Translations under genes and position numbers: made by a program
The notes under the pieces: model-generated
Databases searched by the model: none
What the model was told of the DNA's origin: nothing
Seen by the model: only the letters and a program-made list of their open reading frames with translations
In this document: piece by piece, positions 38,688 through 59,290 of the stretch
Position numbering within the stretch: position 1 is the first letter of the stretch
Layout of the letters: every line of letters starts with the position of its first letter
Assembly (NCBI GenBank): GCA_039889305.1
Contig: JAVVFV010000006.1
Span: 1 to 62,047, forward strand
DNA from: Candidatus Zestomicrobium tamdykulense
GTDB lineage: Archaea > Thermoproteota > Thermoprotei_A > Sulfolobales > NBVN01
Reading direction: 5' to 3'
Length of the DNA stretch: 62,047 bases

Positions 38688-39356
38688 AGTAAATATTGCT
38701 TTAATAGAGACTATGAGCTTCCTACTTATGAGGCTTAATTCTAGCATGAGGCACGCGACTGATTTTTTGAGACCTCCCTCCATGTGTGCCTTAATTACTT
38801 TAGACCAGTCAATCTTTATCACGTAATATGAGAATAGTATGGAGAGTGCTATGAAGGCAGGTATTGTGTGATAACCTAACTCCTCACCAGCTAGGATTAG
38901 TAGACTACCGTAGAATACTACGAGACTCTTCAGGAACAATTTACCTAGAAAAACTGAGATGAAGTAGGTAAGTAGGGAGAACCCTGAGAGTCCTAGAGGT
39001 AAATAAAGTACGTCATCAGGTAAAGGTAATGCCGCAAAGACGAATATAGCTAGTGGGAGAGACTTGCTGGCTATCTTATTGAATAATTCTAGGTTCTTCT
39101 TACTACTCTGACCTAAAAACTTGGAGAATCCTTTCCCTATGAAGTATATAAGGATCTTGCCTAGACTAGCTCCTAGAGCCGAGAAAAACACTACCAGGAT
39201 TCTGTCGTGTAGGCTCGTAAACTTGAAAGCAAAACCTATTATCACGAGTAGGTAAGGGAGTGAGATAAACGGGATAGAATTACTTACGAAACTAATTAAG
39301 AACGGTCCTAAGAGGAAAGTCTTGAGGTATTCTAGTATGTTGCTTACATCCATCAC
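38613..39356 (-). CDS. DedA/VTT-domain membrane protein
   Basis: SALGASLGK, FAALPLPDD, FLGK. Confidence 0.82.
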   Translation of the reverse strand: MMDVSNILEYLKTFLLGPFLISFVSNSIPFISLPYLLVIIGFAFKFTSLHDRILVVFFSALGASLGKILIYFIGKGFSKFLGQSSKKNLELFNKIASKSLPLAIFVFAALPLPDDVLYLPLGLSGFSLLTYFISVFLGKLFLKSLVVFYGSLLILAGEELGYHTIPAFIALSILFSYYVIKIDWSKVIKAHMEGGLKKSVACLMLELSLISRKLIVSIKAIFTLLKKLSKIVIQDFTNFFRRCPRQL

Positions 39357-39421
39357 TTCATTACCTTCAATGGTCTATATCGTTACTAATTAATAAGTAC
39401 CTATTTAAGTTAAGTCTTAGT

Positions 39422-39916
39422 GTGTTAGGGGTGGAGCCACACAAGATCTTCAGCATAGTAAGTAGATGTCCTGTCTGCAATAACGAGAACCTGGATATAA
39501 GCACCTACACGTACGAAGTACCTCACTTCGGTGAGGTGATAATAGAGGTGTGGAAATGCAGTAACTGTGGCTACAGGAAATCCGACGTTAGTACACTAAA
39601 ACATGAAGGTGAAGTTAGGATTATCTTTCCAGTAAAGAATCAGGAAGATCTAAACGCTCTCGTTATTAAGTCATCTACAGCAACTGTAGAAATACCTGAG
39701 TTAGGTATTGAGATATTACCAGGTCCCGCAGCACAAGGCTACATAACCACGGTTGAGGGTCTCCTAGAAAGAATACTGGAGAACACACCATCAGAATGTT
39801 TTGAGGAAAGCAACAGCTGCTATGAATTTGTTAAAAAAGTAAAGAAAGCGATGAATGGCGAGATAAACTTCACTATAATACTTACAGACCCTTACGGAAG
39901 AAGTACAATAAAATGA
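39422..39916 (+). CDS. ZPR1-related zinc finger protein
   Basis: CPVC, VPHFGE, CSNCGYR, IPELG.EI.PG, TTVEG, DPYG.S. Confidence 0.93.
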   Translation: MLGVEPHKIFSIVSRCPVCNNENLDISTYTYEVPHFGEVIIEVWKCSNCGYRKSDVSTLKHEGEVRIIFPVKNQEDLNALVIKSSTATVEIPELGIEILPGPAAQGYITTVEGLLERILENTPSECFEESNSCYEFVKKVKKAMNGEINFTIILTDPYGRSTIK

Positions 39917-39980
39917 CCCTCTAACTAACACAATAAATCAATTAAATTTTCTGCTAACACAAGCGAACAATCCTAGGTAG

Positions 39981-40055
39981 CGGGCCCGCCGGGATTTGAA
40001 CCCGGGATCTCCGGCTCCGGAGGCCGGCGCCTTATCCTGGCTAGGCCACGGGCCC
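39981..40055 (-). tRNA. tRNA-Arg(CCG)
   Basis: GGGCCCG...CGGGCCC-G acceptor stem; anticodon arm CCGGC-CTCCGGA-GCCGG; CCA not encoded. Confidence 0.96.
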
Positions 40056-40215
40056 TTAATTATTATTCTTTGGACTTTAATGAGTTTTTAATAATTGTAT
40101 GTTTACTCATCCTCTTCTTACTAGAATACACTTCCTTAGGATGATGAAAGGATTCATTATTTGAGTGAGTAAACCTAAATTAAAGGTCTTGTTCTTTGTG
40201 ATGAGTCAGACTAAG

Positions 40216-40230
40216 CTAAAACTTTATAAG
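40216..40230 (+). promoter_or_regulatory. BRE/TATA promoter of the tRNA 3' half
   Basis: TAAAAC-TTTATAAG, with the TATA centred about 26 nt upstream of G40253, where the GC-rich leader begins. Confidence 0.7.
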
Positions 40231-40252
40231 GTGTGGTCATTTTATGATATAT

Positions 40253-40314
40253 GGGTCTGCTGAGGGTCGTGTGAGACCCCGAGGTCGGTGGTTCAAATCC
40301 ACCCCCCGCTACCA
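40253..40314 (+). tRNA. 3' half of split tRNA-iMet (leader 40253-40276, exon positions 39-76 at 40277-40314)
   Basis: CCCCG-AGGTC-GGTGG-TTCAAAT-CCACC-CCCCGCT-A-CCA is exactly 38 nt with initiator-type U72; no 5' half upstream or downstream; leader ends in GTGA-GA, able to pair with U33-C34-A35-U36. Confidence 0.8.
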
Positions 40315-40371
40315 CATTTATGGTTTGCAGATTTGATGATAAGGATTTTCTTTGCTGGCTTGTATTTTATT

Positions 40372-41232
40372 ATGGTGGATAGTTTGGGTCTTGGGGGCTT
40401 GTTTGTAGGTCCTGCAGGTATTCCTTTGAGTGCGAAAGGTTCAGGGGTGCTTAGGGGTATTAGGGTAGTTAAGGAGCTTGGTTTAGATGCTATGGAGATA
40501 GAGTTCGTGAGGGGTGTGTGGCTTAAGCTTGAGGAAGCTCCGTCTCTTAAGGAGGTAGCTTCTGAAACAGGCGTTATTCTTAGTGTTCATGCACCTTACT
40601 ACATAAATCTCCTATCTAAGGAGGAGAAAACTGTTAGGGAATCCGTCAAGAGAATAATTAACTCAGCTAGGGTAGGGTATCTTGCTGGTGCTTGGTCCCT
40701 AGTTTTTCACCCAGGTTATTACGGGAAGCTAAGTTCTGAGACTGCTGTGAGTGTTGTGAGGACTGCTCTCAAAAACATTGTTTCTAAACTAATTAACGAA
40801 GGTGTGAGAATCTGGGTAAGGCCTGAAACCATGGGTGGGTTAGCAGAGTTCGGGTCTCTTGATGAGGTATTAGCTGTTGTCGAGGGTGTTGAGATGGCTC
40901 ACGTAGCTCTTGACTTCGCACATTTATACGCGAGGAGTAGAGGAACCCTAAATAAGTTGAGAGATTTTGAGAGTATTCTAGACTCAATAGAAGCTAGGTT
41001 AGGTAGGGAAGCCTTGAAGGAAATGCATATACATGTCTCAGGCATCGAGTATGGTGATAGGGGGGAGAAGAAACACCTAGACTTCAAAGACTCAAGATTT
41101 AACTGGGTTGATGTAATTAATGCTTTGAAGAACTACGGGGTTGAGGGAATCATAATATGTGAGTCCCCCAGCTTAGAAAATGATGCACTCCTAATAAAAC
41201 AGAAGATTATGGAGTTAAGTCCACATACTTAG
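40372..41232 (+). CDS. endonuclease IV-like TIM-barrel protein
   Basis: GPAG.P, E.EFVRG, SVHAPYYINL, VFHPGYY, PETMG, DFAH, H.HVSGIEY, ICESP; the ORF-track start at 40288 overlaps the tRNA half, so ATG 40372 is preferred. Confidence 0.9.
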   Translation: MVDSLGLGGLFVGPAGIPLSAKGSGVLRGIRVVKELGLDAMEIEFVRGVWLKLEEAPSLKEVASETGVILSVHAPYYINLLSKEEKTVRESVKRIINSARVGYLAGAWSLVFHPGYYGKLSSETAVSVVRTALKNIVSKLINEGVRIWVRPETMGGLAEFGSLDEVLAVVEGVEMAHVALDFAHLYARSRGTLNKLRDFESILDSIEARLGREALKEMHIHVSGIEYGDRGEKKHLDFKDSRFNWVDVINALKNYGVEGIIICESPSLENDALLIKQKIMELSPHT

Positions 41233-41396
41233 CTACACTTAATTCTAGAATCTTTTGGCAGACAAATCTTAAACTTCTCTAGAGCTAGGCAGACCTGATC
41301 AATAGGTATGAAAGCAGTAGCTCCTGACTTAAGCTTTATGAATACAGACTTTCCAACAATCTTAATTTCAGCTTCTTCACATGAAGGAATTACCAC
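41229..41396 (-). CDS. small hypothetical protein (55 aa, 4 Cys), not in ORF track
   Basis: GTG start after GGTGA: VIPSCEEAEIKIVGKSVFIKLKSGATAFIPIDQVCLALEKFKICLPKDSRIKCS-TAA; its stop overlaps the endonuclease IV stop. Confidence 0.6.
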   Translation of the reverse strand: MVIPSCEEAEIKIVGKSVFIKLKSGATAFIPIDQVCLALEKFKICLPKDSRIKCS

Positions 41397-58831: not shown

Positions 58832-58921
58832 TGGTAGCCGGGCGGGGATTCGAACCCCGGTCACGGGGGCACTCCCCAGAGGACCAGAGCCCCGCATCCT
58901 TGGCCACTAGACGACCCGGCT
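58832..58921 (-). tRNA. tRNA-Gln(CUG) with 14-nt intron at 37/38 (58870-58883)
   Basis: AGCCGGG...CCCGGCT-A-CCA; CTCTGG|TCCTCTGGGGAGTG|CCCCCG forms a BHB (CUCU/GGAG helix). Confidence 0.95.
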
Positions 58922-58928
58922 ACTCAGG

Positions 58929-59018
58929 TGCCGCCGCGGGGATTCGAACCCCGGACCTCCGGATATCCCCAGGATTGGCCGTATGAGTCCGGCGCTCTAC
59001 CCGCTAAGCTACGGCGGC
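58929..59018 (-). tRNA. elongator tRNA-Met(CAU) with 17-nt intron at 37/38 (58965-58981)
   Basis: GCCGCCG...CGGCGGC-A; CCGGA-CTCATA|CGGCCAATCCTGGGGAT|A-TCCGG; relaxed BHL motif. Confidence 0.93.
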
Positions 59019-59166
59019 ACCAATAACTACTATAATAACCCACCTTAAAAATATTCTTGTGTACGTGCGGATTTACTTAATACTACAGTTCTATCTGCAA
59101 TAAAATAAGAGTACACGACTGTTCTGGTACACACAAACATTAACTTCTTTATTCTTTTGTAGAGGA

Positions 59167-59290
59167 GGCGGATCCCAGTTTGAGGGGGCTGCGAGGCCTC
59201 GCGGACCTCACTGCCCCCTCAACGCGGCCGGCTTAACTTCCGGGATCTGACGAGTCCGGGTGTTTCCCGACCGCTATGACCGGGACCGCC
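59167..59290 (-). rRNA. rrf: 5S rRNA (unlinked)
   Basis: GGTCATAGCGG...AAACACCCGG...CCGGAAGTTAAGCC...GCGAG; complementary ends; TATA (CTTAAAAA) upstream. Confidence 0.96.

Follow-up and report, generated by a model that had tools for sequence, protein, structure and literature searches.

The 62,047-nucleotide (nt) stretch of DNA analysed here, referred to as the window, is contig JAVVFV010000006.1 (C29) in the assembly of the archaeon Candidatus Zestomicrobium tamdykulense (GCA_039889305.1; Sulfolobales), a genome of 1,299,652 bases in 48 contigs, with ~41% G+C and 93.95% completeness. On its forward strand a 39-nt stretch corresponds to positions 38–76 of the methionine initiator tRNA (tRNA-iMet); no 5′ half adjoins it. 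The interval 40253–40314 reads GGGTCTGCTGAGGGTCGTGTGAG followed by ACCCCG AGGTC GGTGG TTCAAAT CCACC CCCCGCT A CCA, in which A38 precedes the anticodon-stem strand CCCCG, the variable loop AGGTC, the T arm GGTGG-TTCAAAT-CCACC, and the acceptor strand CCCCGCT closing with U72 (40310), to be completed by the discriminator A73 and an encoded CCA end (40312–40314). A first-pass annotation, made from the sequence alone, had described a stand-alone 3′ half of an initiator tRNA ending in U72 with no 5′ half beside it, and this description holds. Its assignment of 40277–40314 to positions 39–76 was right as to the tRNA but not as to the start of the exon, which is most likely A38 (40276).

The exon is preceded by a 23-nt G+C-rich leader, of which 40253–40266 (GGGTCTGCTGAGGG) forms the pairing strand for the trailer of a 5′ half located elsewhere, and 40270–40273 (UGUG) forms the 3′ strand of a central 4-bp helix with C32–A35. 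The remaining AG (40274–40275) and A40276 make up a 3′ bulge with the predicted cleavage site. The 3′ half was called neither by ARAGORN, which found four other tRNAs in the window, nor by Rfam at its gathering score, which listed four tRNAs and a 5S rRNA; a permissive Rfam scan gave 19.6 bits against a cut-off of 29, with good alignment only over the 3′ part of the tRNA. Forty-one genomes, this one (G000) included, were searched for related loci, ten of them belonging to the same genus. A chance match is excluded, since the same 39 nt recur without a difference as the 3′ portion of the uninterrupted iMet gene in G010, from another genus of the same family, and in all nine 3′ halves of the present genus. 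Weak matches to C/D-box families resembling small nucleolar RNAs, seen near the locus in the permissive scan (15–18 bits against cut-offs of 50–90), were rejected as fortuitous.

According to the first-pass annotation, a 5′ half would read AGCGGGG...CGGGGCTCATAA and then run into a complement of the leader. Scanning the genome for the reverse complement of the leader together with the 5′ acceptor strand revealed exactly one such site in 1.30 Mb, on the minus strand of contig C2 (4982–4944), comprising iMet positions 1–37. This 5′ half reads AGCGGGG...CGGGGCTCATA and continues into the trailer TCGCCCTCAGCAGACCC, which matches 16 of the 18 positions of the predicted trailer, 14 of them consecutive and perfect; the part CCCTCAGCAGACCC (C2 4940–4927) is a perfect 14-nt complement of window positions 40253–40266. 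All other sites in the genome have three or four mismatches over the leader 18-mer, and none stands beside tRNA-like sequence. When the 5′- and 3′-half RNAs were cofolded, an energy of −85.3 kcal/mol was obtained. The halves thus occupy separate loci, C2 4982–4944 (−) and C29 40276–40314 (+), with 4.9 kb between the former and the end of C2 and the latter 40 kb into C29; at least 45 kb would separate them even were the two contigs to abut. At this distance they cannot share one short transcript, and a single long cis transcript spanning both halves is ruled out in this genome by the contig layout.

Joining C2 4982–4944 to window 40276–40314 by script gives a 78-nt product that ARAGORN folds as tRNA-Met(cat), and whose drawing has A1–U72, three G–C pairs at 29–31:39–41, and the anticodon CAU in a CUCAUAA loop. 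Together, these features define an initiator tRNA. For eukaryotic iMet, A1:U72 is mentioned in a passage of the tRNAscan-SE 2.0 paper (PMC8450103). The product is identical at 78 of 78 positions to the uninterrupted iMet gene of G010 (locus L032), from which the product of joining at 38/39 is absent; the junction is therefore most likely 37/38, the canonical intron site, and not 38/39 with GUGA pairing to U33–U36 as had first been suggested. In the 37/38 register, the anticodon stem is followed by the 3′ bulge AG|A38, the central helix and the 5′ bulge U36 A37|U, beyond which lie two pairs, a 1-nt bulge and a 14-bp helix. The central helix consists here of C32–G, U33·U, C34–G and A35–U. Facing U33 is a U in this genome's clade, a G in the congener G003, and an A in the congeners G005 and G006; in these three congeners four proper pairs form in the 37/38 register only, and the bulge-helix-bulge fold lies 2–4 kcal/mol above the minimum free energy. 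The leader end GTGTGAG|A resembles the ...CTGTGAG|A end of short 37/38 cis introns in many related genomes, which carry the same U33·U mismatch and must be spliced at 37/38.

Each half appears to have a promoter of its own. The first T of TTTATAA lies 30 nt ahead of G40253, and on C2 the same 30-nt spacing separates TTAAAAA from G4994, the first G of a G-rich start. Of 45 tRNA genes examined with a crude pattern of our own, 28 had a TATA-like match and 17 had none; in 23 of those 28 its first T stands 28–34 nt ahead of the mature 5′ end, which implies very short or absent 5′ leaders. The iMet 5′ half is an exception among the tRNA genes of this genome, with a 5′ leader of ~12 nt. Because the TATA spacing resembles that of other tRNA genes, transcription starts at ~G40253 and ~G4994 are a reasonable inference. 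The B recognition element (BRE) and TATA box noted at first pass are accordingly at the right distance from the leader, and TTTATAA(G) recurs at this spacing in 9/9 same-genus 3′ halves, suggesting that the box of the 3′ half is an active promoter. The TTAAAAA box of the 5′ half is likewise kept among congeners.

All ten genomes of the genus contain the 5′ half with its trailer, and nine also contain a stand-alone 3′ half preceded by its leader and TTTATAA box; the exception is G002, in which the 5′ half is present but no 3′ half was found. Each exon has the same sequence in every genome where it was found, and the promoter-proximal and downstream flanks diverge. The leader–trailer helix is 13–17 bp long (wobble pairs included) in each of the nine genomes with both halves and contains three compensatory changes: G–C in G000 and G001 against A–U in the other seven, U–A in the clade of G000 against C–G in G003, G005 and G006, and A–U against G–C with a G·U intermediate in G005. 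No change disrupts the helix core. Together, the identical exons, the covarying helix and the drifting flanks argue strongly for function. A wider scan of GTDB species representatives, for two purines and A followed by the exact 3′ half (a pattern that leaves out uninterrupted genes), returned 26 loci, 14 of which have a 5′ half 56–76 nt upstream, as short cis introns, and four have one 159–223 nt upstream with a TATA box between. The other eight have no 5′ half inside the fetched locus, although some of these contigs or stretches are short and absence is not established. Loci with the leader of this genus are labelled Zestosphaera sp., Desulfurococcaceae archaeon and uncultured Sulfolobales archaeon.

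Comparison of gene orders has provided insight into how the halves came apart. The gene is uninterrupted in G010 and carries an 18-nt cis intron at 37/38 in G017, also of another genus in the family. In G003, G005 and G006 the halves are adjacent on one strand, with C39 159–282 nt after A1; the TTTATAA box of the 3′ half lies inside the spacer, so that each half has its own promoter. Different contigs carry the two halves in G000, G001, G004, G007, G008 and G009. In 7/7 genomes compared, a DUF1152 gene lies upstream of the iMet gene or its 5′ half, and each of the six split genomes compared (G000, G003, G004, G005, G006 and G008) has an AP_endonuc_2 gene downstream of the 3′ half; in G000 and G004 a proteasome-alpha block comes after the 5′ half, as at the intact G010 locus. 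This synteny places the breakpoint in the short spacer bounded by CCATTC, after the 5′ unit, and by the 3′-half promoter. A tree of DUF1152 groups the seven genomes that lack adjacent halves in one clade (100/100), leaving G003 and G005+G006 outside it; most parsimoniously, the halves separated once, after a stage in which they were adjacent. A 37/38 cis intron, as in the sister genus, would have gained a promoter for its 3′ part, giving the adjacent two-promoter state that is still present in three congeners; a rearrangement between the units would then have separated the halves in the ancestor of the seven-genome clade that includes this organism.

The split gene is the only initiator detected in the genome. 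ARAGORN called 46 tRNAs genome-wide, one of them an implausible 938-nt call, and Rfam RF00005 gave 44 matches above cut-off, none of them iMet; in agreement with the first-pass expectation that no intact iMet gene would exist, none was found in the 93.95%-complete assembly by ARAGORN, RF00005 or fuzzy matching. The 3′ half is likewise confined to the window, no second copy being found genome-wide with up to six mismatches allowed. The other two CAU tRNAs (C9 23679–23779 and the one in the window, listed in the table) have G1–C72 and do not have the three G–C pairs at 29–31:39–41, and are presumably the elongator Met and Ile2 tRNAs. Processing enzymes are encoded. Two paralogues match tRNA_int_endo (PF01974), at C44 113203–113457 (92 bits) and C37 1763–1996 (47 bits), consistent with the broad-specificity, two-subunit crenarchaeal enzyme; RtcB is encoded at C9 21301–22605 (583 bits), and the RNase P RNA is also present (202 bits).

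The window very probably carries the 3′ half-gene of a genuine split tRNA-iMet, trans-spliced at 37/38. The first-pass proposal of a split, trans-spliced initiator is therefore supported, by a unique partner, the perfect 14-nt complement, the 78/78 product and the lack of any intact iMet gene in the searches made. By analogy with characterised split tRNAs, the TATA box of the 3′ half would direct a transcript that begins at about G40253, and the 5′ half would be transcribed from TTAAAAA on the minus strand of C2, starting at about G4994 and giving a transcript composed of the 12-nt leader, positions 1–37 and the trailer. The two RNAs would anneal via the acceptor stem (7 bp), the anticodon stem (5 bp) and the G+C-rich leader–trailer helix (14 bp), to form a relaxed bulge-helix-bulge at 37/38, both bulges of which would be cut by the heteromeric, two-paralogue endonuclease. 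A37 would then be ligated to A38 by RtcB, and the 5′ leader removed by RNase P, the CCA end being already encoded.

Several points weigh against this account. The evidence for it is sequence-level throughout: a query for RNA sequencing runs over window 39300–41300 listed none, a result that counts neither for nor against expression, and the promoters and terminator were judged by eye and spacing. In the clade of this genome, the bulge-helix-bulge fold lies 11–12 kcal/mol above a continuous helix in a shifted register, and this deficit, with the U33·U mismatch in the central helix, means that the motif is relaxed and not canonical; in addition, G007, G008 and G009 no longer have the G(+3)–C(−8) pair beside the 5′ bulge. 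The GTCCCCC that follows the trailer on C2 is a 7-nt complement of the unit's own 5′ leader, forming a helix that is not nested with the trans tRNA fold and whose role is unexplained. The seven-genome clade, on which the single separation event depends, comes from a single-gene tree and includes G002, where the 3′ half was not found. Finally, an intact iMet gene of this genome might lie in the missing ~6% of its assembly.

That last point bears on the proposal that the fragment is an attachment (att)-site scar or decayed copy, with an intact iMet gene in the unassembled 6% of an assembly that is both incomplete and in 48 contigs. Integrating elements often leave stand-alone 3′ parts of tRNAs behind. 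Disruption of tRNAs by mobile elements has also been proposed as a model (PMC3293823). A scar, however, would not have a partner 5′ half with a trailer complementary to its leader, would not keep exons identical in nine genomes amid diverging flanks and a covarying helix, and would not retain a TATA box at fixed spacing. Moreover, the neighbouring genes are chromosomal and in synteny in G004 and G008, the genome holds a single copy of the 3′ half, and G003, assembled in four contigs at 98% completeness, has the adjacent split form only, with no other match to either half. No direct repeat in an intact tRNA gene was found; an integrase was not searched for in the window, the Pfam scan of open reading frames (ORFs) near the 3′ half having covered only the ZPR1-like and AP_endonuc_2 proteins. 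Taken together, these observations make a scar very improbable.

There is slightly more room, though still little, for a split tRNA that is joined at 38/39, with U33–U36 paired to GUGA, cuts after U(+1) and before C39, and U, not A, at mature position 38. This shifted register pairs better in the clade of this genome, where it is the minimum-free-energy fold, and it also results in a 7-nt anticodon loop. It would, however, yield a product differing from the intact gene of the sister genus, and in G005 and G006 it sets A35 opposite A, where the 37/38 register gives four Watson–Crick pairs; C32, furthermore, faces the 3′ bulge in the shifted register, so that two 3-nt bulges are not formed. The cis-intron orthologues ending in ...CTGTGAG|A start their introns with U, G or A, and under 38/39 joining position 38 would vary among species, which is unlikely for an initiator. 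Least probable of all is that the half-RNAs have separate roles or form a non-covalent two-piece tRNA and are never ligated. The ligated product was not observed here, yet uncleaved RNAs would keep leader and trailer paired to the anticodon loop (C32–A35), leaving the anticodon unreadable; the organism requires an initiator tRNA, for which no second candidate turned up, genes for EndA and RtcB are present, and in the known split tRNAs covered by a 2014 review the halves are joined in vivo (PMC4090602). A split initiator trans-spliced at 37/38 remains the reading that we adopt below.

Split tRNAs of this kind have precedents, and those named at first pass (Nanoarchaeum iMet, Desulfurococcales Asp and Lys, and the permuted Thermofilum iMet) match the entries in PMC3218864. 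The closest is the split tRNA-iMet(CAU) of Nanoarchaeum equitans, also interrupted at 37/38 (Randau et al. 2005, tabulated in Chan, Cozen and Lowe 2011, PMC3218864). As described there, it shares with the present case the same tRNA and junction, halves that lie far apart and a trailer and leader that are complementary and rich in G+C, and, in features that are predicted here, separate transcription of the two halves, a relaxed bulge-helix-bulge and processing by a heteromeric EndA. It is distinct in belonging to a reduced symbiont of another phylum, whereas the present genome is of a free-living crenarchaeal type, and here close relatives retain the cis-intron and adjacent-halves states, making the split visibly recent. 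The tRNAs of N. equitans are leaderless, unlike the 5′-half unit here with its 12-nt 5′ leader and extra element pairing with that leader, and to our knowledge N. equitans has no RNase P, in contrast to the RNase P RNA encoded by this genome.

Among the Desulfurococcales, the split tRNA-Asp of Aeropyrum and Thermosphaera has adjacent halves on one strand joined at 37/38, with a BRE/TATA in the apparent long intron, 20–25 nt before the start of a G+C-rich leader (PMC3218864). This arrangement, as reported, is that of the congeners G003, G005 and G006; the tRNA is a different one, and in the genome of the window the halves are on different contigs. The tRNA-Lys(CUU) that is split in Staphylothermus marinus and S. 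hellenicus, joined at 30/31 (Chan et al. 2011, PMC3218864), is alike in its Desulfurococcales-type lineage, its two promoters, and halves that lie kilobases apart and are kept between congeners, but concerns another tRNA and another position; an iMet split at ~30/31 occurs in G019 and G011, from other genera of the window's family. Thermofilum pendens has a permuted tRNA-iMet, a single transcript with its 3′ part first, joined at 59/60 and carrying a canonical intron in addition (PMC3218864); the tRNA and the dependence of maturation on bulge-helix-bulge motifs are the same, whereas here there is no permutation and two transcripts are predicted. No published description of a split iMet in Zestosphaera or Desulfurococcaceae was found in the open-access literature searched. 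The word "tRNA" is absent from the main text of a paper on a Zestosphaera-related Desulfurococcaceae metagenome-assembled genome (PMC11467010), and the relevant passage of the tRNAscan-SE 2.0 paper speaks of four archaea with missing CAU-type tRNAs and names three, none of this lineage (PMC8450103). On this comparison, and consistent with the first-pass suggestion that it might be undescribed, the split iMet would be novel for this lineage, though not in kind.

The immediate surroundings of both halves, and a second group of RNA genes in the window, are collected in the table. The tRNA-Arg(CCG) gene is divergent and lies ~200 nt upstream of the 3′ half; as G003, G005 and G006 have the 5′ half directly upstream instead, this neighbourhood postdates the separation. 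The spacer downstream of the 3′ half could, as a guess, provide a transcription stop ahead of the AP_endonuc_2 gene. Towards the end of the window, two intron-containing tRNAs and a 5S rRNA form a tight cluster on the minus strand (58832–59287).

Features of the two half-genes and of their surroundings (window positions refer to contig C29)
Feature	Contig	Position	Strand	Basis
tRNA-Arg(CCG)	C29	39980–40055	−	
Putative archaeal promoter: purine-rich BRE-like TAAAAC (40217–40222), TATA box TTTATAA (40223–40229)	C29	40217–40229	+	Read from sequence; spacing
G+C-rich leader of 3′ half, 23 nt	C29	40253–40275	+	Complement beside 5′ half; cofold; covariation
3′ exon of tRNA-iMet(CAU), positions 38–76	C29	40276–40314	+	Read from sequence; weak Rfam match
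Spacer with T runs, e.g. TTTTCTTT near 40346–40353	C29	40315–40371	+	Read from sequence
AP_endonuc_2 gene	C29	40372–41229		Pfam PF01261 match
tRNA called Gln(CTG) or Lys(CTT), depending on ARAGORN mode	C29	58832–58921	−	
CAU tRNA with 17-nt intron at 37/38	C29	58927–59018	−	
5S rRNA	C29	59170–59287	−	
TATA box TTAAAAA of 5′ half	C2	5024–5018	−	
G-rich start GGGGGAC of 5′ half	C2	4994–4988	−	
5′ half: A1, 4982; anticodon CAT, 4947–4945; A37, 4944; trailer from 4943	C2		−	
GTCCCCC (4926–4920), then ACCA (4919–4916), after trailer	C2		−	

The GTCCCCC-ACCA element on C2 has counterparts at related loci. In 20 of 26 related iMet loci (L009–L068), a G+C-rich outer helix with at least five G–C pairs connects the 5′ leader to sequence just past the tRNA, and in at least 14 of the 20 it is directly followed by (R)CCA, in the manner of a second acceptor stem. 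The helix covaries, with versions that include GGGGGGT/ACCCCCC, GGAGGG/CCCTCC, GGCGGGG/CCCCGCC and GGGGCCGTT/AACGGCCCC. Normally it encloses the entire gene, but in the present genus both strands belong to the 5′-half unit, the 3′ strand following the trailer of the 5′ half and not the 3′ half; the 5′-half RNA alone can close on itself at −37.1 kcal/mol, with a z-score of −1.4 that is not significant. No comparable G+C-rich leader–trailer helix was seen among the other tRNA genes of this genome, and no description of the outer helix was found in the open-access literature searched.

Other interruptions of the same tRNA have been identified in the family and its relatives. Loci L046 and L050, labelled Acidilobaceae archaeon and Desulfurococcales archaeon, show the adjacent two-promoter form of iMet in an independent version whose 12-bp helix is different, comprising a 5′-half trailer ...CCGGGCCGCCGGCC, a CTTATAAG box in a ~175-nt spacer and a leader GGCCGGCGGCCC..., with the outer helix still enclosing the whole locus. 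A different split, at ~30/31, occurs in L045 (G019) and L036 (G011), where a piece containing positions 1–30 lies on one strand with its own TTAAAAA box, and the remainder, itself broken by one or two more short interruptions, is found 0.3–1.3 kb away on the opposite, convergent strand behind its own TATA-like box; the 10–11-bp trailer–leader helices of the two loci differ by a compensatory change, and a 5′ piece in G018 resembles this form. In L042 (G028), L038 (G020) and L041 (G012), interruptions at ~30/31, 37/38, 39/40 and 58/59 were recognised by eye, as was an apparent 2-nt exon, AC (positions 38–39), between two of them.

Much larger insertions are found in sister genera, at 58/59 in L087 (G040), L085 (G020), L084 (G014) and L086 (G012), with lengths of 718–785 nt, and at 37/38 in L035 (G022), with a length of 1.2 kb. 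Their ORFs lie on the tRNA strand, and four of five tested match Pfam LAGLIDADG_3 (E 2e-5 to 9e-14); the shorter ORF of the G012 insertion has no LAGLIDADG_3 match. The four 58/59 insertions have covarying closing helices of 13–16 bp and a TATA-like box ~30–35 nt before the 3′ piece, and short versions of 24–27 nt in G028 and G022 have the same terminal sequences as several of the long ones. No recognisable group I intron or other known RNA family is present in L035, L087, L085, L045 and L077, which gave no Rfam matches at gathering score; their disrupted tRNAs were missed as well. Descent of this genus's leader and trailer from the endonuclease-bearing 37/38 insertion of G022 is unsupported, the closing helices being unrelated by eye. 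Homing-endonuclease ORFs are known in archaeal rRNA introns (PMC4496867). No report of an endonuclease ORF in an archaeal tRNA intron was found in the open-access literature searched, and the term "homing endonuclease" does not occur in the 2014 review mentioned above (PMC4090602).

Every protein of the organism starts with initiator tRNA, and the sole detectable iMet gene is in two pieces, so trans-splicing would be essential and not optional. As standard tRNA finders miss both pieces, automated annotation would report a genome without an initiator tRNA. The finding is relevant to a long-standing question, that of whether a split tRNA is an ancestral relic or a recent derivative. The family presents a series, from an uninterrupted gene, through an 18-nt cis intron and adjacent two-promoter halves, to halves on different contigs, that constitutes an unusually complete record of the origin of a split tRNA, and here the split tRNAs are clearly recent derivatives and not ancestral relics. 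The 58/59 and 37/38 insertions with LAGLIDADG_3 ORFs, the convergent splits at ~30/31, and the adjacent and then dispersed halves of this genus hint at a broader picture, which we regard as possible but rather doubtful, in which iMet is in this family a hotspot for mobile bulge-helix-bulge insertions with LAGLIDADG genes and internal promoters, and split tRNAs are what remains after their decay. If this were true, endonuclease-bearing introns in archaeal tRNA genes would appear to be undescribed, and split tRNAs would have arisen through the mobility of introns instead of surviving from an ancestral tRNA in two pieces.

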